This document shows, piece by piece, positions 7,539 to 40,769 of a DNA stretch of 64,000 nucleotides. Origin of the DNA: an uncultured Clostridia bacterium (lineage in GTDB: Bacteria > Acidobacteriota > Aminicenantia > UBA2199); the NCBI GenBank assembly GCA_964422395.1, contig CAYRAO010000007.1, forward strand, positions 11,491 through 75,490. Direction: 5' to 3'. Under the pieces are notes generated by a model. It made no database searches, was not told the origin of the DNA, and worked only from the letters and a program-made list of their open reading frames with translations. Positions within the stretch are counted from its first letter, which is position 1; every line of letters starts with the position of its first letter. The position numbers and the translations under genes were made by a program.

Positions 7539-9305
7539 CTACTTCTTTTCAATTTGATCGTTAGAAAACTTTATCCCCAATTCATTCAGTTGTTTTTCCG
7601 ATACGGTGGAAGGTGATCCGGTTAAAAGACACAGAGATGAAGTGGTTTTTGGAAATGAAATTACTTCCCTTATCGATTCTTCTCCGGTTAGAAGCATAAC
7701 AATTCTATCCATACCGAGTGCAATTCCAAGATGCGGTGGAGCTCCGTATTGCAAAGCATCAATAAAGAATCCGAATTTATACTCAATTTCTCTATCAGAT
7801 AACTTTAACAACTTAAATATTTTTTTTTGAAGATTGACATCGTTTATCCTTCTGCTTCCGCCTCCGATCTCAACTCCATTTAGTACAAGGTCATATGCTA
7901 TTGAATTGACCTTGAGAGGATCGGAATCAAGGAATTCAATATCCTCTAACTTTGGAGATGTGAAAGGGTGGTGGTTGGAATCATATCTCTCTTCCTCTTC
8001 GTTGTAGAAGAAAAGCGGAAAATCGACGACCCAGAGAAACTCCAAACGATCTTCATCTATCATACTTTTTCCAAGGTATTCTCTAAGTTTCCCTGTCAGC
8101 AAAAGGGCTTCATCTTTTTTACCACCAATAAGAAATACTATATTATTTCGATTAACGGATTCGGTATTAAAAAAATTTTCAATTGCAGAACTTTCCAGTT
8201 TTAGGGAGGACTTGTAACCGTTTTCTCCAAACTTCATCCATATGGCTCCCGCACCTCCCGACTCCCTTACATACTCATTTATTTCATCCAGCCTTTTTCT
8301 TGAATAATCCGCTCCATTCTCCAACACAAGACCTTCAACCGAATTTCCCTTATTAATAATGGAATCAAGTATATTTGAGCCAAGCTTGCCGGCACTCTTC
8401 GTAAAATTCTTTATCTCAAGAGGAATTCTCAGGTCCGGTTTATCCGTACCATATTTTTCCATTGCTTCTTTATAAGAAATCGTCCTGAATTTATTTTCTG
8501 TCTTTTTACCCGCCACAGAGAAAATATTCTTAATCAAACCTTCGGTAATTTCAAAAAGTTCTTCGGGCTCTCCGAAACTCATTTCAATATCAATCTGAGT
8601 AAATTCAGGCTGCCTGTCAGCTCTAAGATCTTCATCTCTGAAACATTTGACAATTTGATAATACCTCTCGAAACCGGATATCATAAGTAGTTGTTTGAAT
8701 AGTTGAGGTGATTGAGGAAGAGCGAACACTTTTCCTTTATAAACTCTGGAAGGCACCAAATAATCACGAGCTCCCTCCGGTGTTGCTTTTGTAAGCATGG
8801 GAGTCCCAATATCCATAAAACCAGCCGAGCTAAGATAGTTCCGCACTTTGAGATTCACTTCACTTCTAATCTTGAAATTTTTCTGTAACCTTTTGCTTCT
8901 CAAATCAAGATAACGGTATTTGAAACGTAACTCTTCGGAAACTCCGTCGTTATTCTCAGGAAAAAACGGAGGCAAAAGAGAAGAGTTAAGAACCGTTATT
9001 TCTTTAGCAAGAAGTTCTATATTGCCGGTAAACATTTCGGGATTTGGATTGGATCTTTTTACGATTTCTCCACTTACGGAAATAACATATTCATTTGAAA
9101 TATCTTTAACAATATTTTTTTCTTTAAAATTTTCATCAATAACAATTTGAAGAATACCCTCTCTGTCACGTAAATCCAAAAAAGTCAATCCGCCTAATTC
9201 CCTTTTTTTATTTATCCACCCGTAAACCGTTACATTTTTTCCAAGATGGGATTCGTTTATCTCCCCGCAATACAATTCTCTCCTCAACAATTTTTTTCCA
9301 GCCAT
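7539..9305 (-). CDS. aspS: Aspartyl-tRNA synthetase
   Basis: 588 aa. N-terminal OB-fold sequence LRRELYCGEIN...GWINKKRELGGLTFLDLRDREG. Class II motifs include FRDEDLRADRQPEFTQIDIEMSF and GGGSRRI. Confidence 0.95.
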   Translation of the reverse strand: MAGKKLLRRELYCGEINESHLGKNVTVYGWINKKRELGGLTFLDLRDREGILQIVIDENFKEKNIVKDISNEYVISVSGEIVKRSNPNPEMFTGNIELLAKEITVLNSSLLPPFFPENNDGVSEELRFKYRYLDLRSKRLQKNFKIRSEVNLKVRNYLSSAGFMDIGTPMLTKATPEGARDYLVPSRVYKGKVFALPQSPQLFKQLLMISGFERYYQIVKCFRDEDLRADRQPEFTQIDIEMSFGEPEELFEITEGLIKNIFSVAGKKTENKFRTISYKEAMEKYGTDKPDLRIPLEIKNFTKSAGKLGSNILDSIINKGNSVEGLVLENGADYSRKRLDEINEYVRESGGAGAIWMKFGENGYKSSLKLESSAIENFFNTESVNRNNIVFLIGGKKDEALLLTGKLREYLGKSMIDEDRLEFLWVVDFPLFFYNEEEERYDSNHHPFTSPKLEDIEFLDSDPLKVNSIAYDLVLNGVEIGGGSRRINDVNLQKKIFKLLKLSDREIEYKFGFFIDALQYGAPPHLGIALGMDRIVMLLTGEESIREVISFPKTTSSLCLLTGSPSTVSEKQLNELGIKFSNDQIEKK

Positions 9306-10540
9306 TCGTCAAGATCTCCCTTTTTTATTTTTATCTGATCCCTTGTTGCAAAATTTTTGATTGATATTTCACCATTTTTCAATTCATCTTCCGCCAAAAT
9401 AAGTGCAAAATCAGCTCCGAATTTCATACCTTTCTGTAGTTGCTTCCCCATTTTTTTAGTTGAATAATCTTGGTAAACCACAAGCCCTCTCTTTCTCAAT
9501 CGGTTTGAAAGCTTAAACGCTTCCGTCATAGCTTCCATTCCGTGATATGCAATAATGAGTTTTTTTGCATTTTCTGAAGGATGTCCTTTCATACTGAGTA
9601 AAATCCTTTCAATTCCTCCGGAAAATCCGATTCCCGGGATATCCTGCCCTCCCAACTCTTTGACAAGGTTATTGTATCTTCCACCACCCAATACGGCATT
9701 TTGAGCACCCAATTCCGAAGATGTGATTTCAAATGCGGTTTTTGTGTAGTAATCAAGACCTCTTACCAACTCTTTATTTTCAATAAAATCCAGTTTAAGT
9801 AATAAAAGATTCTTTTTCACGGTATCATAGTGAGAGTCGCAATCATCACAAAGATGGTCGGTGATCTTCGGAAGACCTTTTGCAATATCCGTGCATGACT
9901 GAACCTTACAGTCAAATATCCTTAAAGGATTTGCATTAATCTTCCTCTGGCAATCCTTACAAAAATTATCACGATTTTTCTCTGCATCGGACTTCAATTT
10001 ATTAATGAATTCTGGTCTGCAATTCGGACAACCTACGGAATTAATATAGAGATTTATTTTCTTTAAATTCAGAGTATTAAGAAAATCTACAGCAGAAAAA
10101 ATTACTTCCGCATCAAGATAGGGAGAGTTATCTCCGAATACCTCAACTCCGAATTGATGAAATTGTCTAAAACGTCCCTTCTGCGGTTTATCATATCTGA
10201 ACATCGGACCGATATAAAAAAATCTTTGAGGGAACACTTTATCCATTAAATTATTCTCTACCAATGCTCTTACTACTGATGCAGTATTTTCGGGACGAAG
10301 CGTCATATCTCTACCCGCCAAATCTTTGAAGTTATACATCTCTTTTTGAACAACCTCAGTTTCACTCCCGATTCCTCTGTGGAAAAGTTCACTCCTTTCA
10401 AATATAGGAGTCCTTATCTCTTTATAGCCGAATAACTTGAAGTATTCTCTTATGCTATTTTCCAAATATTGCCATCTCTCAACTTCCGGCGTGAAAATAT
10501 CTTTTGTACCTTTAGGTGCATTTAACTTATTCATAAGCAT
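9284..10540 (-). CDS. hisS: Histidyl-tRNA synthetase
   Basis: 418 aa. KGTKDIFTPEVERW, RPENTASVVRA and the GGGRYNNL motif are present. It overlaps the aspS start by 22 nt. Confidence 0.93.
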   Translation of the reverse strand: MLMNKLNAPKGTKDIFTPEVERWQYLENSIREYFKLFGYKEIRTPIFERSELFHRGIGSETEVVQKEMYNFKDLAGRDMTLRPENTASVVRALVENNLMDKVFPQRFFYIGPMFRYDKPQKGRFRQFHQFGVEVFGDNSPYLDAEVIFSAVDFLNTLNLKKINLYINSVGCPNCRPEFINKLKSDAEKNRDNFCKDCQRKINANPLRIFDCKVQSCTDIAKGLPKITDHLCDDCDSHYDTVKKNLLLLKLDFIENKELVRGLDYYTKTAFEITSSELGAQNAVLGGGRYNNLVKELGGQDIPGIGFSGGIERILLSMKGHPSENAKKLIIAYHGMEAMTEAFKLSNRLRKRGLVVYQDYSTKKMGKQLQKGMKFGADFALILAEDELKNGEISIKNFATRDQIKIKKGDLDEWLEKNC

Positions 10541-13738: not shown

Positions 13739-14833
13739 TTACCAATCTTTCTTATGTGATTTACAAAAGGTTACCTTTTCTACACAAACTAATCCCCATA
13801 TACCTCTGTCAATAAAGAAATCTCCGAGAGGTCCCAAAGTTAACCCCCTTTTTTCGGAAATATTATTTTTAGCAGTTATTAGAATTATTTTCTCTCCGTT
13901 TGAGGTTTGAAAAATCTCAATCCAACTGAATAACGCCCTGTATCCGTCACAACCGACAAACATGAAGAAATCATCCGGTTTTCCATTACCAAAATTTTCC
14001 AGAAGCCAAGAGCGGAGATCATAACCTGTTACTTTATCCAATTTTTCCGATTTAATACCTCTTCCGTGTCCGATCCTGAACCAATTTGAAACAGTCTTCA
14101 TACGTACATTATTTTCTGAACTTTTTGTTTTTTTTCCGTTTTTAATGCAAAAAAGATTCTCACTCACACATTTTCTCCCGACGGATAATTTAGGGAGAAG
14201 ATGATCACTTGTTTTAATTACGGAAAATTTTATTGCAACCACATTGTTAAGATAACGATTATCGTATAAATCCCCCGGACAGATCAATCGGAATTTTTTT
14301 AGATATCCCGCAAGACTGTTTTTTTGATACAACTCGGATCCTTTAGAGGGGAGCAATTGAGAACGGTAAAATGCAAGAGTTACGGGATTATTATCATTAC
14401 ACATGGTGAGCTCACCATAACTAAAATTTGAAGTTTTTCCAGATTCGGAAATAAATGTCACTATAATATCCAGGGGACGATCAAAGATATCGTTTTTATT
14501 TTTCAGGGGAGCAATTCCGTCCAAAAGGAAGTAAAGCGGGATCCCATAATAAATATACACGCCGGATATCTTCCCGTCGGAACCGACTTCTCTTGCCCTT
14601 ATCCTTACGGTAGACATATTTGATAAATATTCGGCATTCAGATTATACTTTTTTTCAACCTTTCCAAATATTTTTATTGATAATTCGGAAGGAATGGATT
14701 TTTTCTTTGCGACACAAGTCGCTGAAGAGAGAGCATCAGTCCGATCATTTTTTGAAACAGAATGGAGAGGTGTTAAAAAATTAATATATGGTATTAAAAT
14801 GGAAAAAATGGCAATAGACGATAATCGCTTCAT
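13739..14833 (-). CDS. Hypothetical secreted protein
   Basis: Start reassigned to MKRLSSIAIFSILIP (ATG at 14833) because an AAGGAGG RBS sits 6 nt upstream. Has a signal-peptide-like N-terminus. No recognised domain. Confidence 0.55.
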   Translation of the reverse strand: MKRLSSIAIFSILIPYINFLTPLHSVSKNDRTDALSSATCVAKKKSIPSELSIKIFGKVEKKYNLNAEYLSNMSTVRIRAREVGSDGKISGVYIYYGIPLYFLLDGIAPLKNKNDIFDRPLDIIVTFISESGKTSNFSYGELTMCNDNNPVTLAFYRSQLLPSKGSELYQKNSLAGYLKKFRLICPGDLYDNRYLNNVVAIKFSVIKTSDHLLPKLSVGRKCVSENLFCIKNGKKTKSSENNVRMKTVSNWFRIGHGRGIKSEKLDKVTGYDLRSWLLENFGNGKPDDFFMFVGCDGYRALFSWIEIFQTSNGEKIILITAKNNISEKRGLTLGPLGDFFIDRGIWGLVCVEKVTFCKSHKKDW

Positions 14834-14995
14834 ACAGCCTCCTTTGCAAACAAACTTTGTTTTAACGGCAGGCAAAGGAGTTTCCCCCCAAACCCTATCG
14901 GTCAGCATCCGTAACATTTACGCCTTAGGACCACTAACTCGGAGGTTAAAAACTCTTTATACTACACTTCTCATTACAAATCAAAACTTTTTTTA

Positions 14996-15056: not shown

Positions 15057-17411
15057 ATGAATTTTAATAGGTTCCAATTGAAAAAATTTATAAAAAAATA
15101 TAAAAATATTATTGTTGTAATCATTTCTTTGGTTATCTTTTATCTTATTATACCTCTTCCCGACAACATCTTTAATTCCGATTACAGTACGATTATCACT
15201 GACAAAAACGGAGAAATACTAAGAGCATTTGTAAATACCGAGGAGCAGTGGCGTTTCCCTCCGAATTACGGTAAATATTTTTCCAATAAACTACATATTG
15301 CTGTGATTAATTTTGAGGATAGATATTTCCATTATCATCCGGGGGTCAATCCGATTTCCATCGGAAGAGCATTACTCGGCAATATTATTTCAGGAAAAAT
15401 AAAAAGTGGAGCAAGTACTATTTCCATGCAAATTATCAGACTTGCTTTTAAGAAAAAAAGGACTCTCTTAAATAAACTGATCGAGATGTTTCAGGCTTTA
15501 AAACTTGAAATAAAATATTCAAAAAAGGAAATATTGAGGATGTATCTAAAGAACGCTCCCTACGGAGGAAATATTATTGGAGTCGATGCAGCTTCATTAA
15601 GATATTTTGGGAAACTTCCCAAGATCCTGACATGGAACGAAGCTGCTATTCTCGCTGTCCTTCCAAACTCTCCCGGACTAATTTCTCCATTGCAGAACAG
15701 AGAGAAACTTATTAAGAAAAAGAACCGTTTACTTAAGAAACTTTTTGAAAGAAGAATTATTGATCATGATATTTATAATCATAGCATTTCAGAAAGTGTG
15801 CCTTCGGAAATCATCCCTTTTCCGGTAATTGCTCCCCATTTCTCCGAATACTTAAAAAAATTATACAGAGGAAGGAGAAATCTCATAAAATCATCAATTA
15901 ACAAGGAGTTACAGATAAGGAGTGAAAATCTTATTAAAGAACATCTTAAGATTTTAGAAACATCCGGTATAAATAACGGAGCGGTAATTGTAGCTGAAAC
16001 AAAGAGTGGAAAAGTGCGGTCTTATTGCGGTTCTCAGGATTTTTTTAATTATGAGAATAGTGGTCAGGTTGACGGAGTTATAGCACCGAGATCATCCGGG
16101 TCGATTTTAAAACCTTTTCTTTATGCTCTTGCGATTGATGAAGGCTATATCCTTGAGAAAACGGTTATAAAAGATATTCCGTCCTATTTCGGATCATTCT
16201 CCCCATCCAATGCTTCAAAAACATTCTGTGGTGTCGTAACGGCAAAAGAAGCACTGATAAAATCATTAAATGTTCCTGCAGTAAGATTATTGAACTATTA
16301 CGGACTTCACAAATTCTATATTTTTCTAAAAAAATGTGGATTGACCACACTGATAAGACCTCCTGATGAATACGGACTCACTATTATTTTAGGAGGAGCG
16401 GAAACAAAATTGATCGAACTTGTGCAATTGTACAGAGGATTGGGAAATTACGGGAAATTTTCCTCCTTAGTATTTAATGAAGAGACCGTTAAAGCCGGAA
16501 AAAAGAAAGAATTAATAAGTCCCGAAGCTTCTTATTTAACTTTGGATATGCTAAAAGAATTAAAAAGACCCGGAGCGGAATACTACTGGGAACAGTATAG
16601 GAGCAAAACACCGATCGGATGGAAGACGGGAACAAGCTACGGAAAAAGGGACGCATGGGCAGTAGGAGTCAGCCCTGAGTGGACAATAGGTGTTTGGATC
16701 GGTAACTTTAGCGGGGAGGGGAATCGGGAATTAGCCGGATATTCGTGTGCCGCTCCTCTTATGTTTGATGTTTTTAACTATCTTCCCAAAAATTCTTCAT
16801 ACAGGTGGTTTAAAAAACAGAATTTAAAATTCAAAAAAGTGGAATTGTGCGTCAAAACAGGTTTTCTTGCAAACGAGAACTGTAATGAAACGGTAAAAGT
16901 AAACGCACCCTCCGGACAAGGAACCGTTAAGCTCTGCCCCTATCACTCATCTGTATATGTATCGTTGGACGAAAAGGAAAGTGTATGTTCGTTGTGCTGG
17001 GAAGAAGGGAGATACAAAAGGATAAAAAAACTGATTTTCCCTCCCGATGTTGCTCAATTTCTCAGGGAAAAAGGGGATATTGTAGATTCTATCCCTCCTC
17101 ATAATAAAAAATGTACGTCGGTAACCGAATCCAACCCGCTTCAGATTCTCTATCCGGTTCAAAATGCCAAAATTCTAATTCCGGTCGATTTTAATGGAAA
17201 AATCCAGAATCTTACGATCAAGATAGCTCATAGATTTAAAAATAGGAAAGTTTTCTGGTATATTGACGGAATTTACAAAGGAGTAACAAAAAACAGACAT
17301 AAAATGGTAATCAATATGTTGTCCGGGTGGCATGAACTTGAAGTAATTGATCAAAATGCAAACTCTGCCAAAAGAAATTTTTTTGTATCGTTTACCAAAA
17401 GTTCCCGTTAG
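15057..17411 (+). CDS. pbpC: Penicillin-binding protein 1C (bifunctional transglycosylase/transpeptidase)
   Basis: 784 aa. GT51 motifs EDRYFHYHPGVNPISIGRA and SGASTISMQIIR. The transpeptidase region has SILKPF. A long C-terminal PBP1C-specific domain is present. Confidence 0.9.
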   Translation: MNFNRFQLKKFIKKYKNIIVVIISLVIFYLIIPLPDNIFNSDYSTIITDKNGEILRAFVNTEEQWRFPPNYGKYFSNKLHIAVINFEDRYFHYHPGVNPISIGRALLGNIISGKIKSGASTISMQIIRLAFKKKRTLLNKLIEMFQALKLEIKYSKKEILRMYLKNAPYGGNIIGVDAASLRYFGKLPKILTWNEAAILAVLPNSPGLISPLQNREKLIKKKNRLLKKLFERRIIDHDIYNHSISESVPSEIIPFPVIAPHFSEYLKKLYRGRRNLIKSSINKELQIRSENLIKEHLKILETSGINNGAVIVAETKSGKVRSYCGSQDFFNYENSGQVDGVIAPRSSGSILKPFLYALAIDEGYILEKTVIKDIPSYFGSFSPSNASKTFCGVVTAKEALIKSLNVPAVRLLNYYGLHKFYIFLKKCGLTTLIRPPDEYGLTIILGGAETKLIELVQLYRGLGNYGKFSSLVFNEETVKAGKKKELISPEASYLTLDMLKELKRPGAEYYWEQYRSKTPIGWKTGTSYGKRDAWAVGVSPEWTIGVWIGNFSGEGNRELAGYSCAAPLMFDVFNYLPKNSSYRWFKKQNLKFKKVELCVKTGFLANENCNETVKVNAPSGQGTVKLCPYHSSVYVSLDEKESVCSLCWEEGRYKRIKKLIFPPDVAQFLREKGDIVDSIPPHNKKCTSVTESNPLQILYPVQNAKILIPVDFNGKIQNLTIKIAHRFKNRKVFWYIDGIYKGVTKNRHKMVINMLSGWHELEVIDQNANSAKRNFFVSFTKSSR

Positions 17412-18258
17412 ATTTTTTTGTTGAGAGTTCATTATATGTAATAGCGGAGATAAGAATTAAACACCCTATAAGTATTCTGATAAGGTTACCGTCCTCTCCA
17501 AAAATCGTCATTGAAATAATAATTGCAAATGGGATTTTCAGATTATTGAAAACCGATATTGTACCTATTTTAGATTTCCTAACACCGTAATTCCAAAGAA
17601 AAAAAGCTATCCCCGAAGGAATTGTTCCAAGGTAGAGTAAAGTATATATCTCTTTTGAAGTAAATAATACTGTTTTTATATCAACGGTAAAAAGAACCGC
17701 AACAAAAGTTACAATAAATGCACCGAAATATAGATAAGCAAATATATTTCTATCCTTTAAGTCTTCTCTTTCCCTCATCAAATCCCTATATTTTACCTGT
17801 CCCCATGCAAAAAAAATATTTGAAAGTTGAATCAGTATGAAGCCAACAAGAAAAGATGAAGAAGTTATATCTCCGTAAGTAATAATCGCAGCTCCTATAA
17901 TTGCAAGAAGTGCTATAAACAGATGTTTTTTTATAAGTCTTTTTCTAATGGTATCGTGTATAAACAAAACATAGAATGGGGTAAAAATAGTAAAAAGTGC
18001 TACCTCATAACTTTTTAAAAAACCGTATGAATAAATATAGGCAATATACATGAATCCGTACTGAACAACTCCTATTAGAATAAACCTGAGCTTAATCTTT
18101 AAGTCAATATTTTTGATCCCGATAAACGGTATAAAAATAAAAAATGAGAGACCCATTCTGATAAATGATATTAAATTGGGATGTAGAGCGGAAAGATTTC
18201 CTTTTATCAGTCCAAATGAAAAAGACCAAATAATAGATGCAAAAATAAGATATGGCAT
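17392..18258 (-). CDS. DMT-superfamily (EamA-like) transporter
   Basis: 288 aa with about 10 TM helices in a duplicated EamA-like arrangement. Confidence 0.7.
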   Translation of the reverse strand: MPYLIFASIIWSFSFGLIKGNLSALHPNLISFIRMGLSFFIFIPFIGIKNIDLKIKLRFILIGVVQYGFMYIAYIYSYGFLKSYEVALFTIFTPFYVLFIHDTIRKRLIKKHLFIALLAIIGAAIITYGDITSSSFLVGFILIQLSNIFFAWGQVKYRDLMREREDLKDRNIFAYLYFGAFIVTFVAVLFTVDIKTVLFTSKEIYTLLYLGTIPSGIAFFLWNYGVRKSKIGTISVFNNLKIPFAIIISMTIFGEDGNLIRILIGCLILISAITYNELSTKKSNGNFW

Positions 18259-18327: not shown

Positions 18328-20169
18328 TCAATCAGACAATTTATTGTCACTATTTAACTTTTCTGCCAATTCCGAAGGGAGTTTTATTAGAGAATTTAGA
18401 TAAGATGAACTCTTTTTTCTCCAATATGACGTTTCATTGATAATTTTTTTTATCTTAATTAAAAAAACCTCTTTTTGTCCAAAGTAATGGAAATGTTTTT
18501 GGAGAAAGTACAATGCATTAATATACTTCGGTTCCAGTTTAATTGCTTCCAACGCTTTCTCTTTTGCTTGGGAATCCTTTTGAAATCTTATCAGCAATTC
18601 AGCCTTTTCCATCTTGATGAACGGATTGAACGGGTCAATATTCTCCAATTTATCCAACGGAGAGATAACCTCCTCAAGAAGTTTCGGATATTGAATACCT
18701 TTTTCCAAAAGGGATCGGAAAATATCGGATTCGAGAAAATAGGCTTCTTTATAATAAGGATTGATTTTTTCTGTTTTTTTTACGTTGTCTAAGGCAAAAT
18801 AGAAAAATTTCAGATCGGATGTTTTCTTAAATTGCCCAAGCAATATTGTTGCTTTCAAATAATACGGAGCGATATTCATATTATCAAATTTTTCCGCTCT
18901 GTTTAGAGAATTGAAAACTTTCACAACATCTTTCTCTTTTAAAGCTTTATTTACCAACAGATCTGAATAAAAAGGGAAGAAATATCCGACAGAAATTGTT
19001 ACGATCAGCATTGCTATCATTATGAATCGTATAAAACCGGAGTTACCGTAGAAATGTATTTTACCCTTAAAAAGGGTTTTTAGAACAAATATGAATAAAA
19101 AGAAAAAAAACGTTTGGAAAACAATAGTAAAAAAGAGAGATTGGAAAAGGAGATACAAAATAAGTATTTTGGAAAGATTAAAAATTGAGCCTTTAAATAC
19201 CCTTTTAAAAATAAAGAATAGAGAGAACAGGATAATAATAACCCCTAACATACCGAATTCCGAAATCAGTTGAACATAATCACTGTGAGGACTTTTAGGA
19301 ATCTTAAAATAATTTGCAGGTCCTTTTTTTTGTTTAAAATTATATTTCCTTGATAATTCTCTGAAATTATCCGCACCTACACCGGTCAACACATTATCCG
19401 AAAACATCTCATATCCGATTTTCCATATTTTAATCCTATCGGCGGAATACGGATCTTTATGTATTGAAAAATCAAACATATTTTTTATCGGATTCGGAAT
19501 AATAAATGTTAGTACAATTAGGAAAAGAACTATTGGGATTGCTCTTTTTTTTTTGCTAAGGACAAGTATTAATGAAAATATTGCGACACCGAGAAATGCA
19601 GCCTTTGACTCGGCCGAATATAGCAAAGCGGAATTAATAACGACAAGCGATAAATAATAATAATTTGTTTTTTTCAAAAAATTATAAAGAGAGATCAACA
19701 CTCCGACACCGGCAATAATTCCTACCCAGATAGTAGTGGAAAAGAAAAAGTCTTTAATCCCCGTAAGAAAGAGTATAATAAGAGAAACTATGGAAAATAT
19801 AGAAATTACTAATCCTATTATCCTAAAATACCTCTCCTCCTCACACTCTTCCGTAAGATAAAAGATAAAATAGAAAGAGATAAGAAATATGTCAAAAAAA
19901 AACAAAAATGATCTTACAAAATAAACTGAAAAAAAAATTGATATCAGAAGTATGGAATTTATTAACAATAATCCCTTTGAAAAATTTGAGACTCCTATGT
20001 TTTTTGTAATAATTATTCTACGAATTAGAAAAACGGTGATTAAAACGGCAAAAATTAAAAAATAGTAAAATGAAGATTTTTCCGGAAAAAAAACAAGAAA
20101 TATCAATATGGAAATAATTTCAACATCTTCATTCATGGATCTTAATTTAAAAAGAATATTCGAAAACAT
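18328..20169 (-). CDS. O-antigen ligase family (Wzy_C) membrane protein with C-terminal TPR region; candidate pilin O-oligosaccharyltransferase
   Basis: Polytopic N-terminal domain with the Wzy_C-like loop YSADRIKIWKIGYEMFSDNVLTGVGADNF, then a soluble TPR-like C-terminus. Start chosen at MFSNIL (20169), which abuts the upstream stop as TAGtATG. Confidence 0.7.
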   Translation of the reverse strand: MFSNILFKLRSMNEDVEIISILIFLVFFPEKSSFYYFLIFAVLITVFLIRRIIITKNIGVSNFSKGLLLINSILLISIFFSVYFVRSFLFFFDIFLISFYFIFYLTEECEEERYFRIIGLVISIFSIVSLIILFLTGIKDFFFSTTIWVGIIAGVGVLISLYNFLKKTNYYYLSLVVINSALLYSAESKAAFLGVAIFSLILVLSKKKRAIPIVLFLIVLTFIIPNPIKNMFDFSIHKDPYSADRIKIWKIGYEMFSDNVLTGVGADNFRELSRKYNFKQKKGPANYFKIPKSPHSDYVQLISEFGMLGVIIILFSLFFIFKRVFKGSIFNLSKILILYLLFQSLFFTIVFQTFFFFLFIFVLKTLFKGKIHFYGNSGFIRFIMIAMLIVTISVGYFFPFYSDLLVNKALKEKDVVKVFNSLNRAEKFDNMNIAPYYLKATILLGQFKKTSDLKFFYFALDNVKKTEKINPYYKEAYFLESDIFRSLLEKGIQYPKLLEEVISPLDKLENIDPFNPFIKMEKAELLIRFQKDSQAKEKALEAIKLEPKYINALYFLQKHFHYFGQKEVFLIKIKKIINETSYWRKKSSSYLNSLIKLPSELAEKLNSDNKLSD

Positions 20170-20170
20170 A

Positions 20171-21628
20171 CTATTTTTTCTCCGGTGACATATTCCCAAG
20201 ATTTTTATCAAGGTTTAATTTAAGAAAATCAAACCATTTTTTATATTCCCTATTTCTTATATTTAACGATTTTGCTCTTCCGGCATAATAAAAAGATGTC
20301 AGATATTTACCCTCCGAATACGATATTTTCGATTTCAAGAAATTTGCGTAAGGATTAAAATTGTTTAAAAGTAAAACTTTCCCTAAATATCTATCGGAAT
20401 TTTTTTTATCTCCCTTGGCATAATTTGTTGTTGCCAACCCCATAAGCGATTTATGGTTATACTTATTAAAATTCAGGCTTTTTTTAAAATATAACTCCGC
20501 TTTATCAAATCTTTTAAAATTCATATGAAATGATCCGGATTTTCTATTGCTTGAAGAAGTAAAAACAAGCAGTTGTATCAAAATGAATGAAACGGCTAAT
20601 ATGATATTAATTTTTGGTAGCGGATCGTTCTTCCTATAAATTTGAGATATTATCAAAGTAAAGATTAGGGACGCAGGAAAAAAATAGAAACCTATGTCAA
20701 TTAAATTGTACAATACCACTATCAGTAGAGCGGTAATATACAATGCATTTTCGTCATTAATTTGAAAATACAACTTTTTTCTGAATAAAAAAAGGAGTAG
20801 AATACCAATTATCAAGAAAAATATTCCGATTTCAGAAGTGATCTGGAGAATAAAATTGTGGGAATATATTGAGCGTGCCTCTCCGGGATAAGTAAAACCT
20901 GATATTTTTGATTCATAATTTCCCAAGCCGATTCCGAGAAGAGGACTCGTTTTTATTATCCTAACGGCTTGATTCCAATTGGATATCCTCAACCTGATCG
21001 GTTCTAAATTTTTAGCTTCGGAAAACCTTAATCCGATTATTATGAATAAGAATACCGATAGGATCATCATAAGCGGAACAAAAAATTTACTGTTGAATCT
21101 GCCGGAAAGAAAAAAGTACAATGGAAATCCTGTAAGTAAGTAGAGTATTCCGGAAAAAGACTGCGTTAAAATTATATTAAACATTCCTGTTGTAAACAGT
21201 ATTAACCAGAAGATTTTTATACTGTTTTTTTTTGAATTAATCAGGTAATGAAAAATTGCCAACAGTAAAATTGCACAAACAAATGTATACAAAGTAGGCA
21301 ATGAAAACACCGAGAAGATCCTCCCGCTTTTTACCCTCTCCACCATCGCCTCGGATACGGTGGAAATACCGGCATCCAAGTTATTTAGGTAAATAGGAAA
21401 CAGTAAATATTTTTGAATAATTCCGTACGTGAATATCAAAGATGAAGATAATACCGTAAGGATACGAATAATCCTTTTTAAATTAAAATATCTGAATACA
21501 AAAAAGAGAGATATAAATAAAGCAAAAAATATTGTTCTTTTGAAAAAATCTGTTTTTATATCACTTACGGAATAGTTAAATAGAATAAAAAACAGTGCTA
21601 CAAAAAAATAAAATGTTCTTTTTATCAA
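20171..21628 (-). CDS. O-antigen ligase family (Wzy_C) membrane protein with C-terminal TPR region; candidate pilin O-oligosaccharyltransferase
   Basis: 485 aa with multiple TM helices and the loop ISNWNQAVRIIKTSPLLGIGLGNYE. C-terminal TPR-like repeats (YFKKSLNFNKYNHKSLMGLATTNYAKGD...). Confidence 0.7.
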   Translation of the reverse strand: MIKRTFYFFVALFFILFNYSVSDIKTDFFKRTIFFALFISLFFVFRYFNLKRIIRILTVLSSSLIFTYGIIQKYLLFPIYLNNLDAGISTVSEAMVERVKSGRIFSVFSLPTLYTFVCAILLLAIFHYLINSKKNSIKIFWLILFTTGMFNIILTQSFSGILYLLTGFPLYFFLSGRFNSKFFVPLMMILSVFLFIIIGLRFSEAKNLEPIRLRISNWNQAVRIIKTSPLLGIGLGNYESKISGFTYPGEARSIYSHNFILQITSEIGIFFLIIGILLLFLFRKKLYFQINDENALYITALLIVVLYNLIDIGFYFFPASLIFTLIISQIYRKNDPLPKINIILAVSFILIQLLVFTSSSNRKSGSFHMNFKRFDKAELYFKKSLNFNKYNHKSLMGLATTNYAKGDKKNSDRYLGKVLLLNNFNPYANFLKSKISYSEGKYLTSFYYAGRAKSLNIRNREYKKWFDFLKLNLDKNLGNMSPEKK

Positions 21629-21652: not shown

Positions 21653-21686
21653 CAAAAAAAAACGGCTGATAAAATATCAGCCGTTT
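21653..21686 (-). terminator. Rho-independent terminator, bidirectional, downstream of the pilin gene
   Basis: Hairpin CGGCTGATA-aaa-TATCAGCCG at 21662-21682. It is flanked by A8 on one side and T4 on the other, so the minus-strand transcript reads stem-loop followed by TTTTTTTT. Confidence 0.7.
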
Positions 21687-21706
21687 TCATATTTAAATCA
21701 AATACT

Positions 21707-22153
21707 CTACTTAACTCTCGGACCCCAAACAAAAGAACCATTTTGAAAGACAATATCATTATTAAATCCAGCTAAACTAGTAACAACGTAGCTACCAACA
21801 CTTACAGGATCCGGTGTTCTATTTTTTCCGAAAGAATGAATGGTATATAACTCATCAGGACGTGATCTCAGGTAATTCCAAGTTCCGCCCCATCCGTCTT
21901 GTATTGGAAAATGCGGCATATAAAAATCTCTATGCCTACCGAATCCATCATCTTCAAGGGTAGTAGGTGCAATATAAAAATCTGTCATATATGCTGAACA
22001 TGCTGTTCCAATTGTTTTCATATCCGCCATAGTCGCTTTTTGCTTACCTTTTTGTATAGCCACAAGCAAATTGGGAATTGCTATAGCAGCTATAATACCG
22101 ATGATTGCAACAACAATCAAAAGTTCGATTAACGTAAAACCTTTTTTGTTCAT
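21707..22153 (-). CDS. pilA: Type IVa pilin (prepilin with N-terminal methylation motif)
   Basis: MNKKG|FTLIELLIVVAIIGIIAAIAIPNLL. The short leader ends in Gly, followed by Phe+1 and Glu+5. 148 aa. RBS AAGGAGG. Confidence 0.88.
   Translation of the reverse strand: MNKKGFTLIELLIVVAIIGIIAAIAIPNLLVAIQKGKQKATMADMKTIGTACSAYMTDFYIAPTTLEDDGFGRHRDFYMPHFPIQDGWGGTWNYLRSRPDELYTIHSFGKNRTPDPVSVGSYVVTSLAGFNNDIVFQNGSFVWGPRVK
22030..22153 (-). repeat. Pilin N-terminal coding repeat, copy 1 (~85% nt identity to 22610-22732)
   Basis: Direct comparison of the two pilin 5' regions shows long identical runs (GCCACAAGCAAATTGGGAATTGCTATAGC...). Confidence 0.8.
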
Positions 22154-22189: not shown

Positions 22190-22205
22190 TGCAATAATCT
22201 TGCCA
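22190..22205 (-). promoter_or_regulatory. Sigma54 (RpoN) -24/-12 promoter for pilin 21707-22153
   Basis: The minus strand reads TGGCAAGATTATTGCA, with GG and GC exactly 10 nt apart, against the consensus TGGCACG-N4-TTGCW. It lies about 37 nt upstream of the ATG with the RBS in between. Confidence 0.6.
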
Positions 22206-22288: not shown

Positions 22289-22732
22289 TCATTTTATGCT
22301 TGGACCATACGCAAGCAGTCCTCTGGAAAAAATAATATCCTTATTAAAATCTTGCAAAGAATTTACTATATATATACCCGATTGATCATATCCCCCAAAC
22401 ACATTGTCTTTTCCAGGAGAAACTATCGAATATAGTTGAGTCATTGAATTGTCTCTTGCATAAAGCCATGAATTTCCCCAGGCATCAACTTCAGGGAAAT
22501 TTTTAATGTAAAAATCTCCGTTATTTCCAAATGTCATATCCGACGGAGCCTGACAATTGTCCGTAACGTATATTTCAATGGATGTTGCAAGAGTTCTCAT
22601 ATCGGCTATAGTTGCTTTCTGCTTACTCTTTTGAATAGCCACAAGCAAATTGGGAATTGCTATAGCTGCAATTATACCGATTATGGCAACGACAATAAGT
22701 AATTCTATTAAAGTAAAACCCCTTTTGGTCAT
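22289..22732 (-). CDS. pilA: Type IVa pilin paralogue
   Basis: MTKRG|FTLIELLIVVAIIGIIAAIAIPNLLVAIQKSKQKATIADM. The first ~45 residues are near-identical to the downstream pilin; the C-terminal globular part is divergent. 147 aa. Confidence 0.88.
   Translation of the reverse strand: MTKRGFTLIELLIVVAIIGIIAAIAIPNLLVAIQKSKQKATIADMRTLATSIEIYVTDNCQAPSDMTFGNNGDFYIKNFPEVDAWGNSWLYARDNSMTQLYSIVSPGKDNVFGGYDQSGIYIVNSLQDFNKDIIFSRGLLAYGPSIK
22610..22732 (-). repeat. Pilin N-terminal coding repeat, copy 2
   Basis: See copy 1. Confidence 0.8.
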
Positions 22733-22768: not shown

Positions 22769-22783
22769 GCAATTTAGATTCCA
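22769..22783 (-). promoter_or_regulatory. Weaker sigma54-like -24/-12 element for pilin 22289-22732
   Basis: The minus strand reads tTGGAATCTAAATTGCt with correct GG-N10-GC spacing, about 37 nt upstream of the ATG. This geometry matches the downstream pilin promoter. The dyad GATATTGAGAATATC at 22795-22809 lies just upstream. Confidence 0.4.
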
Positions 22784-22857: not shown

Positions 22858-24213
22858 TTAGAAAAAATCTTCCGAAGAATCATAATTATGAAATTTTGTA
22901 AACTTATCTATAAATGCCAATTCAATCTTTCCCGTAGGACCGTTTCTTTGTTTGGCAATAATCAGATCGGCAATTCCTTTTCTCTCCGTATCTTTTTCAT
23001 TTTGCTCATCTCTATGGAGAAACATTATCACGTCTGCATCTTGTTCGATTGCACCGCTCTCTTTAAGGTCTGACAACTGATATTTGCGACTGCCTCTCTG
23101 TTCGGGAGACCTATTAAGCTGTGCCATGGCAACAACGGGAATTTGAAGTTCTTTTGCAAGTTCCTTAAGAGAAGCGGAAATTATTGAAACTTCCTGAGCT
23201 CTTGAATCACTTCTTCTAAGATTTTCACCTGTCACTTTCATTAGTTGGAGATAATCCACAAAAACGATATCCAATCCGCTCTCCCTCTGAAGACGTCTTG
23301 CTCTCGTTTTCATCTCAAGGACGGACAGAGTAGCAGAATCATCAATATAAATATTACTTTTTGAAATAGCTTCTGCTGCCAATTCCAATTTTTTCCACTC
23401 TTGCTTTGTAAGACTATATTTACCTCTTATAAGAGCACTCATGTTAACTTCAGCTTCGGTGGCAAGCAGTCTCAGCATGATCTGAAGTCTCGACATTTCA
23501 ATAGAAAAAAAACCTACCGATCTATTCTCTTTTATCGCAATATTTGAGGCAATATTCAACCCTAAAGCGGTTTTACCCATTGAAGGTCTTGCCGCAACAA
23601 TAATCAGATCACTTTGCTGAAATCCTCCGGTCATGTCATCAAGTTCATAAAAACCTGATTTTAGTCCCCCCGAATCTCCATGCTTTTGAATTTCTCTGAT
23701 CTTATTAATGGTTTGTGGAATAATTATTTTTGAAGATTTGAAGCCGTCATCAATCTCAGATCCGGCTATCTTGATTATATCATCTTGAAGCTTTGCAAGA
23801 ATTGATCTGACATCAGCTTTAGGTTCAATCCCTCTTGAAATCACATCGGAGGAGGTGGTAATTATCTTTCTAAGTACCGATTTCTCTTTTACAATGTTAA
23901 CATAATCTGAAATATCAAAATTTTCAGGAATACCGTCAGTGAGTGAATTAAGATATGTATAACCTCCGACAAACTTTAACTCGTCTTTTCCGAGATGCTC
24001 ACCGATTGTTAATGTATCCGCTTTTTTACCGGATTCATATACGTTGTATATACCGGCAGCTATGGTTTTATTTGAAGTACGGAAAAAATCGTCCGAATTT
24101 ATCTCGTTAAATACCAAATCAATATTTCTGTTATCAATCAACATTGCCCCCAAAACAGCTTTTTCCGCTAAATCGCTGTTAGGGAGCTTGGTCGATTCAG
24201 AAAAATTATTCAC
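22858..24213 (-). CDS. dnaB: Replicative DNA helicase
   Basis: 451 aa. N-terminal DnaB domain (AEKAVLGAMLID), Walker A in ARPSMGKTALGLNIA, and RecA-like C-terminal motifs. Confidence 0.93.
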   Translation of the reverse strand: MNNFSESTKLPNSDLAEKAVLGAMLIDNRNIDLVFNEINSDDFFRTSNKTIAAGIYNVYESGKKADTLTIGEHLGKDELKFVGGYTYLNSLTDGIPENFDISDYVNIVKEKSVLRKIITTSSDVISRGIEPKADVRSILAKLQDDIIKIAGSEIDDGFKSSKIIIPQTINKIREIQKHGDSGGLKSGFYELDDMTGGFQQSDLIIVAARPSMGKTALGLNIASNIAIKENRSVGFFSIEMSRLQIMLRLLATEAEVNMSALIRGKYSLTKQEWKKLELAAEAISKSNIYIDDSATLSVLEMKTRARRLQRESGLDIVFVDYLQLMKVTGENLRRSDSRAQEVSIISASLKELAKELQIPVVAMAQLNRSPEQRGSRKYQLSDLKESGAIEQDADVIMFLHRDEQNEKDTERKGIADLIIAKQRNGPTGKIELAFIDKFTKFHNYDSSEDFF

Positions 24214-24719: not shown

Positions 24720-24992
24720 TTATCCTCTCCTGGACTCAATAAATTTCAGAAGAGCCATATGCCTTGCCCGCTTTATAGCTTTACTGAGTTGCTTTTGATG
24801 ATATGCACATGTTCCCGTAACTCTTGCAGGAAGAATTTTCCCCGTTTCAAGAATATAATTCCCAAGTTCGGTTGATTTCTTATAATCAATAAATCTTATC
24901 CTGTCTTTACAAAAAGAACAATATTTTTTTCTTGAAAAATACTGTTTTTTGGGAAATCTGGAAGGTCTTGACGGTCTACTTGGACTCTGCAT
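24720..24992 (-). CDS. rpsR: 30S ribosomal protein S18
   Basis: CSFCKDRIRFIDYKKSTELGNYILETGKILPARVTGTCAYHQKQLSKAIKRARHMALL. Confidence 0.92.
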   Translation of the reverse strand: MQSPSRPSRPSRFPKKQYFSRKKYCSFCKDRIRFIDYKKSTELGNYILETGKILPARVTGTCAYHQKQLSKAIKRARHMALLKFIESRRG

Positions 24993-25632
24993 TTTCTACC
25001 TCCTCGTCTGCTTTCTTATCTTTTTTTGCTGTTGATTTTTTTGTTTTCGTCTCTTTTTTAGGTAACACCTCTACCTCTTTTTCCTCTTTAACCGTTTCGG
25101 TTTTTACTTTAGGCTCTTCAGCTTTTTCAGCTTTCTTCTCTTCCTTTATTTCATCAGTCACCTTGGTTTCCCGCTCAATTTGCTCACTCTTTTTCGTATC
25201 TTTCACTTCTGCTTTTTTTGATTCGGAATTAGATTTTGTTGACTGTTCGGAAACTCTCTCTCTTCCTGATTCTACTGTAGATTTTTTTGAGAATTTTTCC
25301 ATTCTCTTCCATTTCTTTTCCAACTTGTTGGTTTTTTTAAGTTTGTCATCAAGACGGATAACGATAAATCTCATAACCTTTTCATTCAGTTTTAATCTCC
25401 TTTCAACAGTAGCTATTACATCTCCCGGTGCTTGTGTTTTTATAAAAACGTAAACACCCTCTTTGTGCTTTTCAATCGGATAGGCAAGAGCTTTACGCCC
25501 CCAATCGTCAACACTTTCAATTGTACCTTTTCCCTTTGTTAGGATTTCGGTTATGGAATTCTTAATTTTTTCCGCCTCCTCTTCAGCGGTGTCAGGATTG
25601 ATTATCAATCCTATTTCATAATCTCTTTTCAT
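24976..25632 (-). CDS. rpsF: 30S ribosomal protein S6 with long K/E-rich C-terminal extension
   Basis: MKRDYEIGLIINPD...GRKALAYPIEKHKEGVYVFIK, followed by a tail of about 100 aa of low-complexity K/E. Confidence 0.9.
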   Translation of the reverse strand: MKRDYEIGLIINPDTAEEEAEKIKNSITEILTKGKGTIESVDDWGRKALAYPIEKHKEGVYVFIKTQAPGDVIATVERRLKLNEKVMRFIVIRLDDKLKKTNKLEKKWKRMEKFSKKSTVESGRERVSEQSTKSNSESKKAEVKDTKKSEQIERETKVTDEIKEEKKAEKAEEPKVKTETVKEEKEVEVLPKKETKTKKSTAKKDKKADEEVENAESK

Positions 25633-25689: not shown

Positions 25690-26379
25690 TTATTTTTCTT
25701 TATCTTCCGTACTTTTTTCCTCTTTGTTTTCTTTATCGGACTTCCCTTCTTCAACCTCTTCTTCCACACCTTCTTCACCTTCTTCCAACTCATCCTCTTC
25801 AGCAACCTCTTCCTCTGCCGAACCCTTCAGAGATACGGCACAAATTACACGACCTGAGCTTGAAAGCAGTTCCGTATCTTCATCAAGCTCAATTATTTCG
25901 AACTTAAGAGAATGACCTACATGAAGATCGGTAATATCAATCTCAAATTTACTGGGAATTTTGGCAGGAAGACATCTAATATCGACCTCTCTGTTTACAA
26001 AATCGAGTATTCCATCCTCAAGTCTTACTCCGACAGGTTCGCCCGTCAATACAATCGGAACACTTACGTCAATCTTTTTCTTTAAATCAATTCTAATAAA
26101 ATCAGCATGAATAATGTTGCTTGAAAGGTAATCGTACTGAATGTCTTTTAACATTGCATCAACTTCTATTTTATCTCTTTTGATTTTCAAGATAGTATTT
26201 TCACCCATTTCGGCTTTCAGTATTTTCTTAATATAGTCCAAATCTATCGAAATGGGAATTGAATCTTTATCTTCACCGTATATTATTGCAGGAATTTTCC
26301 CCTCTCTCCTAATCCTCTTTGCAACCTGCTTCCCTACATTATCTCTTGACTGTGCTTTAACTTCCATTATATTTTCCAT
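25690..26379 (-). CDS. rplY: 50S ribosomal protein L25 / general stress protein Ctc
   Basis: EVKAQSRDNVGKQVAKRIRREGKIPAIIYG in the N-terminal domain. Acidic C-terminal tail. Confidence 0.88.
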   Translation of the reverse strand: MENIMEVKAQSRDNVGKQVAKRIRREGKIPAIIYGEDKDSIPISIDLDYIKKILKAEMGENTILKIKRDKIEVDAMLKDIQYDYLSSNIIHADFIRIDLKKKIDVSVPIVLTGEPVGVRLEDGILDFVNREVDIRCLPAKIPSKFEIDITDLHVGHSLKFEIIELDEDTELLSSSGRVICAVSLKGSAEEEVAEEDELEEGEEGVEEEVEEGKSDKENKEEKSTEDKEK

Positions 26380-36140: not shown

Positions 36141-36365
36141 ATGGTTTATAATGCATCCATAATGAAAAAATGTAACACAAATCCTTTCGTAAAATATATA
36201 AGAATAGGGCTTTCACTTCTCGTTATCGGACTTGGAATATTCTATAAAAATTGGGTAGGAATACTTGGCATATTAACACTCGTATCCGCATTTACAGGCG
36301 AATGTGCATTCAATGTCAAAATCAACAGAAGTTCTCACGAAGAGTCTGCTTCCGGAAAAAACTGA
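36141..36365 (+). CDS. Small membrane protein (possibly DUF2892-like)
   Basis: 74 aa. One or two hydrophobic segments and a conserved-looking Cys. It overlaps convergently with the 36335 gene and may be spurious. Confidence 0.3.
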   Translation: MVYNASIMKKCNTNPFVKYIRIGLSLLVIGLGIFYKNWVGILGILTLVSAFTGECAFNVKINRSSHEESASGKN

Positions 36366-38275
36366 ATACCGAGATCTCTTGACTCTTCTCCAAGTCCCAA
36401 TTTCTTTAAGTTAAAAACAGGTTCTACTTTGATTTTTATAAAATAATCTCTATCAGGTATCCCGTTCAGATTAAGGATATACCTCTCGTTTGATTTAAAT
36501 GTTTTTGTCCCGACAAGTTCACCATCCATAAAAACATTTAACTTTTGAATACTCTGAGGCAGATTATCAAGCGGTGCTCCACAAAAAAATTTTAACTGCT
36601 TTAAATTCCCGTCTTTATCGGATTTCACTAAGAATCCCGCACTCCCCTTTGTCCATACAAATTTTGAATTTTCCGATTTAGTCCAAAATCCGAAATCGTA
36701 TGGAAGTTTGTGAATTGACATGATTTTCGAGGGGTGAAGCGAATTAACGGACAGTACATTTGAAATAATAAATATCGCAACTATCACATAGATATACGGC
36801 TTAATATTTTTCACAAATCTTAAGGAATTTTTTCCATTTGTTTTCAACGAGCCTACAATTATCCAAAAAAGGATAAAAATTTCCGGTAACCAAAGAGAAT
36901 TCCCTACAAGCATAACAAGGAATATCACAACCAGTATTTTAGCGTAGGAATCGTTCTTTGCCCTCACTAAGATATTGGTAAGAAAGAATAAAAATGCAAA
37001 TACTCCAATCACTCCCATTTCATCAACAATCAACAAATATTGGTTAAGGGGAAGATCTTCTATAAATTTTTCTTTATATTTAATATGTTTAAGATAAAAC
37101 AGAAAATTTCCGGTTCCGACACCCGAGAGCGGATATTTTTTTATCATAGGTAGCGAATTCTTAATCATCTGTACCCTTCCGTTTGAAAACTTGTCAAGAG
37201 TTTGGAGAAAATTGTTTTCACCCTTTTTTATTCGAGATGAATCAAGTGATGAATCAAGTCTCTCTTTAAGTTTCCCTCCTGAAAACACAAGAACAATTAT
37301 TACTACTACCGGTAATACTATCTTGAACAAAATTCTAACTTTGCTAAATAGCATAAAAATAAATGCAAAAATCACAAAAATAAATGCGGTTCTGCTTCCT
37401 GATAAAATTATTCCAATAAATGATATGGAAAAAGAAAACAATAAAAATATCATATCTTTTCTTTCAAAGAATTTCTCATCTCCATAATTATTTTCCATCA
37501 ACCTTAGAGATGAATAAAGAAAAATCACTCCGCCAAAAAATCCGAATCCGTTAAAATCCGAGAATCCCCCATTATATTGATTCAGTTTGCTTCCCCACCA
37601 CTCCAAAGACATAAACCCGTTGTCGAAAAATTTTTGATAAATTGCAATAGAAACAGATATGGAATAACCTGAGGCTAACAGTTTAAATAATTGTTCTCTC
37701 TTAATTTCATACCTCTTAATTATAGAGACAACAAAAGGACTTATGGAAAACAAAAACAGTGTGATAACCGGAAATATAACTGCAAATGAATTCCTGGGAC
37801 TCATCGGAAGTCCGGGGGATACAGGTGTATCTTTAAGAAAAGCTCCTAACGAGAACGTGACATTCGACCATCTTATAAATACAAAAATTGCAGATATCCA
37901 CAATAAAAGGAGAAAAAACAAGTAAGAATTTTTCCAGTTAAGATCACCTAACTCAATCGGCTCCTTCTTTAATACCAGTCCTGTTAATATGCCGGACAAT
38001 AGAAACGGAAGTACCGCCATCATATTGAAAGGATATCCGTTATGAAATAACGCCGGAAGAGAGTTTATAATAGGAGTTAAAAAAAAAAATAACTTGATCC
38101 CGTTCCCTCTTGGAATAAATGAGATAACAATACCGATGATTAGAAAAAAAACAGGTAAAAAGTGAAATCCGATATGAATTACTATAGTATAAAAAGATAT
38201 AAGGAGAGATAAAAATGCAAAGGTATAATATACAATATCACTTTTTCTAATATGCATTTGGATCACCTCTAACAC
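36335..38275 (-). CDS. O-antigen polymerase/ligase family (Wzy_C-like) polytopic membrane protein with C-terminal soluble domain
   Basis: 646 aa. At least 10 TM helices. Loop KKYPLSGVGTGNFLFYLKH. Confidence 0.6.
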   Translation of the reverse strand: MLEVIQMHIRKSDIVYYTFAFLSLLISFYTIVIHIGFHFLPVFFLIIGIVISFIPRGNGIKLFFFLTPIINSLPALFHNGYPFNMMAVLPFLLSGILTGLVLKKEPIELGDLNWKNSYLFFLLLLWISAIFVFIRWSNVTFSLGAFLKDTPVSPGLPMSPRNSFAVIFPVITLFLFSISPFVVSIIKRYEIKREQLFKLLASGYSISVSIAIYQKFFDNGFMSLEWWGSKLNQYNGGFSDFNGFGFFGGVIFLYSSLRLMENNYGDEKFFERKDMIFLLFSFSISFIGIILSGSRTAFIFVIFAFIFMLFSKVRILFKIVLPVVVIIVLVFSGGKLKERLDSSLDSSRIKKGENNFLQTLDKFSNGRVQMIKNSLPMIKKYPLSGVGTGNFLFYLKHIKYKEKFIEDLPLNQYLLIVDEMGVIGVFAFLFFLTNILVRAKNDSYAKILVVIFLVMLVGNSLWLPEIFILFWIIVGSLKTNGKNSLRFVKNIKPYIYVIVAIFIISNVLSVNSLHPSKIMSIHKLPYDFGFWTKSENSKFVWTKGSAGFLVKSDKDGNLKQLKFFCGAPLDNLPQSIQKLNVFMDGELVGTKTFKSNERYILNLNGIPDRDYFIKIKVEPVFNLKKLGLGEESRDLGIQFFPEADSS

Positions 38276-39668: not shown

Positions 39669-39693
39669 TGTACTTGATACGCTCCTTTACAAA

Positions 39694-40758: not shown

Positions 40759-40769
40759 TTTCCAGTATT

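Follow-up and report, generated by a model that had tools for sequence, protein, structure and literature searches.

A conserved tandem of Wzy_C membrane proteins with TPR domains behind type IV pilin genes in Aminicenantes: candidate pilin O-oligosaccharyltransferases

What is the role of two large membrane proteins of the Wzy_C family that are encoded directly behind type IV pilin genes? The question is raised by a 64,000-nucleotide (nt) stretch of contig CAYRAO010000007.1 (positions 11,491 to 75,490; GTDB lineage Acidobacteriota; Aminicenantia; UBA2199), which is called the window here and whose full length is the basis of the window coordinates. On its minus strand, two pilin genes are followed by genes for a protein of 485 amino acids (aa), W485, and a protein of 613 aa, W613. 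Both combine a Wzy_C membrane domain with a C-terminal tetratricopeptide repeat (TPR) domain. We consider it probable, at roughly 0.6, that W485 and W613 are O-oligosaccharyltransferases (O-OTases) that depend on undecaprenyl-pyrophosphate (Und-PP)-linked glycan and act on internal Ser/Thr residues of the adjacent major pilin. As members of the WaaL/PglL (Wzy_C) superfamily, both would transfer glycan outside the cytoplasm: a preassembled Und-PP-linked glycan would be picked up on the periplasmic side of the inner membrane and passed, most probably, to internal Ser/Thr residues of the pilin(s) encoded upstream, before fibre assembly. O-glycosylation by pilin-linked Wzy_C proteins was also the core of the original prediction on this DNA, and that core is retained on the strength of strict synteny, invariant Arg and His residues and linkage to pil and glycan genes; glycosylation itself is a prediction.

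Gene order of the pilin cassette

The cassette begins next to dnaB (22858-24213), which adjoins the pilin genes on their upstream side. Pilin A (22289-22732, minus strand; 147 aa) is a type IV major-pilin-like protein with a GspG-like globular domain (N_methyl E 1.6e-8, T2SSG E 1.9e-7); its leader MTKRG precedes FTLIELL and its sequence ends in GPSIK. Pilin B (21707-22153, minus strand; 148 aa) contains N_methyl and a T2SSG-like domain, ends in GPRVK and is 55% identical to pilin A. W485 (20171-21628, minus strand) is polytopic, with about 11 transmembrane helices and a TPR domain of three repeats, and W613 (18328-20169, minus strand) has about 13 transmembrane helices and a TPR superhelix of about 200 aa. 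The open reading frames (ORFs), the Pfam matches and the common strand thus confirm that two Wzy_C-family membrane genes lie directly 3' of two pilins, as first described. The listed ORF of W613 covers 18328-20211 (minus strand; 627 aa). Its true start is the ATG at 20169, which lies 1 nt past the W485 stop codon, is preceded by GGAG about 10 nt upstream and gives the 613-aa protein, in agreement with the database protein P0001 (613 aa, 100% identity). Homologues at 60-76% identity come from metagenome-assembled genomes that are named Candidatus Aminicenantes or Acidobacteriota, and the window is accordingly assigned to an Aminicenantes genome.

A scan of one genome per species gave 42 Aminicenantes loci (L009-L050; L numbers denote related loci throughout). 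In every one of these that was long enough to show the order, one or more pilins were followed by a W485-type gene and then a W613-type gene on one strand. Contig ends removed the upstream pilin region in L048 and the W613-type gene in L046, and a few loci had apparent frameshifts. The enzymes were also found immediately next to a pilin on the same strand in L003-L007 and L087; such a position is the operational definition of a pilin-specific OTase of the TfpO/PglS/TfpM type. The gene order is conserved far beyond chance. A lack of pilin association in relatives had been named beforehand as the finding that would speak against a pilin-directed role; the association is present throughout the Aminicenantes loci. 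The idea of one transferase per pilin, in contrast, had to be abandoned, because the upstream pilins number one, two or three per locus while the enzymes always number exactly two. Most relatives have a single upstream pilin and retain both enzymes.

Further pilins also occur on the other side of the cassette. In about a dozen loci a pilin follows W613. In one Aminicenantes subclade (L021, L022, L024, L026-L028, L030, L031, L037, L038 and L042) the extra pilin lies after the W613-type gene at about 9200-9800, and several of these extra pilins carry their own sigma54 box. The extra pilin of L007 (12726-13283) is separated from the W613-type gene by a 431-aa ORF.

Linkage to other pil genes was found in relatives. 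In L006, from a sister lineage, the order is pilB-pilT-pilC-pilS-pilR-pilin followed by the two Wzy_C genes, so that the cassette stands directly behind pilR; in L087, pilC-pilS-pilR-YfhO precedes the pilin and the two Wzy_C genes. This linkage indicates that the pilin is a sigma54/PilR-controlled major pilin of type IVa. A leader ending in Gly, the FTLIEL helix, a sigma54 box and the pilB/T/C linkage in relatives are all features of that class. The globular part is GspG-like and has no disulphide pair.

Two loci of Terriglobia, L088 and L089, contain a W485-type gene (hhalign 99.3%) between a glycan-assembly set and pilins. On one side (L088 1194-8836; L089 1-4971) there are a Glycos_transf_4 initiating transferase, glycosyltransferases of the GT4, GT1 and GT2 families, a methyltransferase and another polytopic TPR protein. 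The opposite flank comprises two or three pilins, an ABC transporter, PMT_2 and YfhO. In Terriglobia, the W485-type enzyme physically joins glycan-assembly genes to pilins. The other polytopic TPR protein (616 or 647 aa) is not Wzy_C-like; its L089 copy (1040-2983) was considered as an orthologue of W613 and was rejected at an hhalign probability of 0.6%, and it is a different polytopic TPR protein. The ABC transporter (ABC_tran and ABC2_membrane_2; L088 10246-12782, L089 7192-9368) follows the pilins directly, an arrangement reminiscent of pilGHI downstream of pilA in Myxococcus.

Enzyme family, catalytic residues and fold

Both enzymes match Pfam Wzy_C (PF04932) above its gathering score of 31.7, with 64.3 bits (E 1.4e-17) and 42.1 bits (E 9.9e-11), and the domain is present in all homologues of both. 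No NCBIfam equivalog was found for W485 or W613. The two had been called paralogous. This is correct at superfamily depth, since hhalign aligns the membrane-domain profiles over 204 columns, the catalytic loop included, at a probability of 97.6% (E 3e-12). Close paralogy is ruled out, since BLASTP detects no similarity between W485 and W613; their homology is visible at profile level only.

Conservation was assessed in 45 W485-type and 36 W613-type sequences, which reach down to 34-35% identity (22% in the W485 outlier P0182). The catalytic loop spans residues 201-258 of W485 and 224-296 of W613. Across both sets, the Arg of an R-x3-W motif (R214 in W485, R245 in W613), a G-x-G-x-G-N-[FY] turn and a His at the start of the next transmembrane helix (H257 in W485, H295 in W613) are invariant. 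The equivalent residues are R288 and H338 in E. coli WaaL and R298 and H349 in PglL (PMC3643930), and TfpM, too, depends on this His (PMC9829042). The Arg and His are conserved in the ligase/O-OTase branch of Wzy_C proteins (WaaL, PglL, TfpO, TfpM and PglS), and both W485 and W613 have them. The transmembrane-domain profile of W613 matches the solved structures of WaaL (7TPG, E 1e-9) and, marginally, of an "oligosaccharyltransferase" (9RMK, E 0.02), with Arg and His aligned in each case; that of W485 matches WaaL 7TPG at E 0.04.

A third Wzy_C protein of the window (36335-38275; 646 aa) aligns to the W613 profile with Leu/Asn at the His site (PLNQY vs PHSDY). Since this protein has no His, it is the pilin-linked pair that represents the ligase/OTase type in the window, and the 646-aa protein is probably a Wzy polymerase, as judged from its sequence. 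This comparison bears on a possible role of the pair as Wzy-type polymerases or ligases for a surface glycan co-regulated with pili, such as a Myxococcus-like exopolysaccharide, in which the TPR domains would form an export scaffold. Pfam Wzy_C covers polymerases too, TPR domains occur in export scaffolds such as BcsC, and polysaccharide clusters are nearby. Both enzymes keep the His that the 646-aa cluster protein lacks, however, and no Wzz, Wza or OPX genes are adjacent. Moreover, the flanks of the cassette vary, with rpsF-rpsR-rplI-dnaB in the window, L001 and L007, an asparaginase gene in L003, YfhO in L004 and others elsewhere, so in Aminicenantes it is the pilin, and not a set of polysaccharide genes, that accompanies the cassette. 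A polysaccharide-directed role is therefore quite improbable in our estimation.

The C-terminal parts were examined in AlphaFold2 models built on the family alignments, which reached a predicted local distance difference test score of 89.4 and a predicted template-modelling score of 0.87 for each of the two proteins. In W485, the TPR domain (residues about 361-480; nt about 20189-20548) has three repeats and resembles designed CTPR3 with a Foldseek TM-score of 0.9. Pfam gives a weak TPR match here (TPR_8, E 0.009), and the W485 family profile (A2) matches TPR proteins at E 1e-80. The tail of W613 (residues about 412-611; nt about 18337-18936) forms the TPR superhelix, with OGT-like and MamA-like matches in Foldseek; Pfam gives no TPR match in W613. 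TPR tails had been proposed from the start, with their side of the membrane given as cytoplasmic or periplasmic. The models and the Foldseek matches support the tails, and the following considerations place them in the periplasm. The catalytic loop must face the periplasm. In the models, four transmembrane helices follow this loop in W485 and in W613, compared with three in WaaL, and K/R-rich loops (RKK 283-285 and RK 332-333 in W485; KKKR 206-209 in W613) lie on the predicted cytoplasmic side. Thus, both TPR domains are predicted to be periplasmic: the one extra C-terminal helix relative to WaaL would put each of them there, where it would dock a protein acceptor.

The TPR domains also raise the alternative that W485 and W613 are non-enzymatic scaffolds of pilus biogenesis, like PilF/PilW/Tgl, with a degenerate Wzy_C fold. 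The W485 TPR region has a weak NCBIfam match to PilW (E 7e-5), but its 22 bits are far under the cut-off of 154 and reflect generic TPR similarity. Since the catalytic Arg and His and the Gly-rich motif are invariant in both families, across identities that range down to 28-35%, a scaffold role is barely credible.

Acceptor, glycan donor and expression

Of 70 pilins, 60 have Lys or Arg as their last residue and one has Ser; the window pilins end in SIK and RVK. With such C-termini, glycosylation at the last residue, as by TfpO and TfpM, is ruled out. A conserved [AV]P behind the N-terminal helix leads into a hypervariable loop with gaps; the window pilins read APSDMT and APTTLE here. Ser or Thr was found in this loop in 69 of the 70 pilins. 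We equate the loop, by its position, with the alpha-beta loop of Neisseria PilE, the site of Ser63.

Several points weigh against the reading of both enzymes as pilin O-OTases. Synteny establishes a functional link, yet it does not give the direction of the chemistry. The loop is not enriched in Ser/Thr (14.6% vs 13.7% in the whole protein, 70 pilins); loop enrichment was therefore rejected as evidence of a sequon, and no acceptor site can be named. A third important residue of E. coli WaaL is R215 (PglL R224), the second conserved Arg of the ligase/O-OTase branch. Its position is taken by an invariant Lys, K189, in W613, and in W485 it aligns to the Phe of TQSFGG in an alignment that is weak (E 0.04). 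Finally, no canonical WaaL turned up in the window, and either W485 or W613 could therefore be the lipopolysaccharide (LPS) ligase.

The last point leads to an alternative division of labour. W485 would be the pilin O-OTase and W613 the lipid A-core O-antigen ligase or a general PglL-like O-OTase for many periplasmic proteins; the two would be kept adjacent because they share an Und-PP-glycan pool. The W613 profile is far nearer to WaaL 7TPG than the W485 profile, K189 keeps a basic residue at the R215 position, and, the pair apart, no Wzy_C protein with the His is present in the window; general OTase activity is also a trait of PglL-type enzymes (PMC9829042). On the other hand, the TPR superhelix of W613, with its predicted periplasmic position, is not a feature of solved WaaL (413 aa). 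W613 is coupled to W485 and follows the pilin in the Aminicenantes loci and also in L006 and L087, behind pilSR. In the loci examined it is never beside lipid A-core genes, save for a chance lpxD in L004. We regard this division of labour as unlikely; the polysaccharide-directed and non-enzymatic roles are less likely than it. The preferred reading is that of W485 and W613 together as pilin O-OTases.

A glycan factory near the cassette had been noted, and two clusters of the Wzx/Wzy type are indeed present at 36.3-58.4 kb. Each is a possible source of the Und-PP-glycan donor, and it is from two such Wzx-dependent clusters that the cassette would be supplied. Cluster 1 (36335-47668, minus strand) contains the 646-aa Wzy_C gene without the His, a Bac_transf initiating transferase, an epimerase, WecG, a GT4 glycosyltransferase, a Wzx-like flippase and a sulfotransferase. 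The 646-aa Wzy_C gene closes this cluster. The sulfotransferase (44053-44904) adjoins the Wzx-like flippase, which suggests a sulfated surface glycan. Cluster 2 (48278-58402, minus strand) contains a Glycos_transf_4 initiating transferase, glycosyltransferases, methyltransferases, a Wzx flippase and a 423-aa, Wzy-like protein with a weak Wzy_C match (54949-56220). The 423-aa protein was considered as a WaaL and was rejected, since neither the W613 profile nor any PDB chain resembles it.

The two enzymes of the strictly conserved tandem could form a pilin glycosylation machine without a described counterpart, either as an obligate heteromer or by adding two glycans to different internal sites of one pilin, for example one glycan from each of the two clusters. 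We put this forward as a speculative proposal with low confidence. If it is true, pili of Acidobacteriota would bear a dual glycan coat, and the pair would add two O-OTase families, both new in their specificity for sequon and glycan.

Each window pilin gene is preceded by a sigma54-type -24/-12 box, recognized by sequence reading and as a family-wide motif: TGGAATCTAAATTGC at 22769-22783 upstream of pilin A and TGGCAAGATTATTGC at 22191-22205 upstream of pilin B, both on the minus strand. Of 72 related pilin genes, 56 have the TGG-N8-TTGC box upstream at a constant spacing, about -60 from the Gly codon; both window pilins are among them, and the background is 0.03 per 260 nt. Between pilin B and W485 there is an intrinsic terminator or attenuator (21654-21688, minus strand) with a 14-bp stem and nine U. 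A simple terminator scan missed it; folding (-18.4 kcal/mol, z = -5.6 vs shuffles) confirmed its presence, so the strong terminator noted earlier behind the pilins is real. The hairpin and U-run are conserved in the close clade (L001, L009-L015) and also in L006 and L087; in other lineages a gap of merely 10-20 nt between pilin and enzyme genes stands in their place. No promoter is visible in the window between the terminator and W485.

The simplest reading is one transcription unit, in which the terminator would hold the enzymes to a small fraction of the pilin level. The pilins have sigma54 promoters of their own. Low-level expression of the transferases would come from terminator read-through, and W485 and W613 are translationally coupled to each other. 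At the other end, a perfect sigma70 consensus promoter (TTGACA-17-TATAAT; 18331 to 18303) overlaps the W613 stop codon and precedes an EamA gene (17392-18258). Since this promoter precedes the EamA gene, W613 ends the transcription unit. In L001, unlike in the window, the EamA gene abuts the W613 orthologue directly.

Other features of the window and of related loci were also recorded. Extracytoplasmic glycosyltransferase families of the GT-C type (YfhO, PMT_2 and TMEM260-like) recur beside the pilin/Wzy_C-TPR cassette in several lineages (minus strand: L004 5049-7322, L088 12887-15836, L089 10248-11971 and L007 13294-14844; plus strand: L087 3697-6135), which hints at further periplasmic sugar additions tied to these pilins. 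Large membrane proteins with a domain similar to spermidine/spermine synthases follow the cassette directly in L006 (11761-13734) and L087 (10830-13394), where the cassette stands behind pilSR; in L087 the domain is fused to an MFS-like part. Four window ORFs have no Pfam match: 59321-61309 (662 aa), 61348-63360 (670 aa), 45974-47668 (564 aa) and 13739-14917 (392 aa). The polysaccharide clusters contain or border the first three of these. Ribosomal protein S6 (24976-25632) carries about 100 aa of K/E-rich sequence as a C-terminal extension and has 218 aa altogether (281 aa in L001), and L9 (24206-24739) and L25/Ctc (25690-26379) have long acidic C-terminal tails.

Comparison with known glycosylation systems

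Pilin O-glycosylation has been worked out almost wholly in Proteobacteria, with PglL, TfpO, PglS and TfpM. In the uncultured sediment class Aminicenantes and related Acidobacteriota, a different arrangement is locked to the major pilin gene. Our search of the literature on pilin glycosylation in Aminicenantes or Acidobacteria, and on Wzy_C-TPR proteins next to pilA, returned nothing specific. The occurrence of a Wzy_C gene adjoining a pilin gene was earlier used to predict, and then to confirm, such O-OTases (PMC3643930). The rule that Wzy_C next to a pilin predicts a pilin O-OTase is thus well-trodden, and its application here is useful rather than surprising. If W485 and W613 are active O-OTases, protein O-glycosylation of pili would reach a new phylum, the pair would be a natural test of C-terminal periplasmic domains that read internal sequons, and they would be candidate enzymes for bioconjugate glycoengineering.

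Among the closest known systems are TfpO (PilO) and TfpM of Pseudomonas, Acinetobacter and Moraxellaceae, whose Wzy_C gene lies immediately 3' of the pilin gene in the same orientation, as here. TfpO and TfpM have 420-470 aa, are without a large C-terminal domain and target a C-terminal Ser/Thr. W485 and W613 are larger (485 and 613 aa), have TPR domains of 120 and 200 aa, and are encoded with pilins ending in K/R. PglL/PglO of Neisseria (Wzy_C and PglL_A) share the Wzy_C core Arg and His with W485 and W613 (PMC3643930). They have 550-620 aa, including an extra C-terminal periplasmic region with a reported TPR motif (PMC2943079), modify an internal Ser of the pilin and lie next to pilins in 21 of 31 homologues (PMC3643930). 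What differs here is the tandem of two enzymes, the Acidobacteriota/Aminicenantes lineage and the marginal similarity to 9RMK (E 0.02). In addition, no Pfam match to PglL_A (PF15864), PglL_B or Wzy_C_2 was found in either protein at E <= 0.1 or in the precomputed Pfam lists of about 180 homologues. The label "TfpO/PglL-like" in the original prediction thus holds for the kind of enzyme, a pilin-linked Wzy_C O-OTase, but not for membership of either family, given the lack of PglL_A and the pilins ending in K/R.

WaaL of Cupriavidus metallidurans (7TPG) is the best solved-structure match of W613 and shares R-x3-W, GVG and the His with it. This O-antigen ligase has about 410 aa and no TPR domain, uses lipid A-core as acceptor and is not pilin-linked. 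The neighbours of W485 and W613 are pilins rather than waa genes, and a TPR domain is present in both.

Precedents for TPR domains in transferases with a protein acceptor come from further afield. TfpW, the arabinosyltransferase of P. aeruginosa group IV pilin, is a polytopic enzyme encoded right after pilA, has a large periplasmic C-terminal TPR domain and modifies internal Ser/Thr (bioRxiv 10.1101/2020.04.19.049825). Its fold is GT-C, with a DDX motif, and its donor is polyprenyl-P-Araf; as TfpW does not belong to Wzy_C, its likeness to W485 and W613 is architectural only. WsfB, the S-layer O-OTase of Paenibacillus alvei, combines Wzy_C with a C-terminal TPR motif and acts on a protein acceptor (PMC2943079); it is likened to W485 and W613 by description only, and differs in its Gram-positive host, its S-layer acceptor and its place in an S-layer glycan cluster. 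According to one proposal, internal sequons are recognised by larger periplasmic domains at the C-terminus (PMC9829042). Considering this proposal together with the TPR regions of PglL, WsfB and TfpW, the TPR tails of W485 and W613 fit a protein acceptor better than lipid A-core.

In conclusion, pilin-linked Wzy_C O-OTases are already known as a kind. What is new in comparison with the systems described above is that two Wzy_C-TPR enzymes of ancient divergence form an obligate tandem, and that this tandem occurs in Aminicenantes and other Acidobacteriota.

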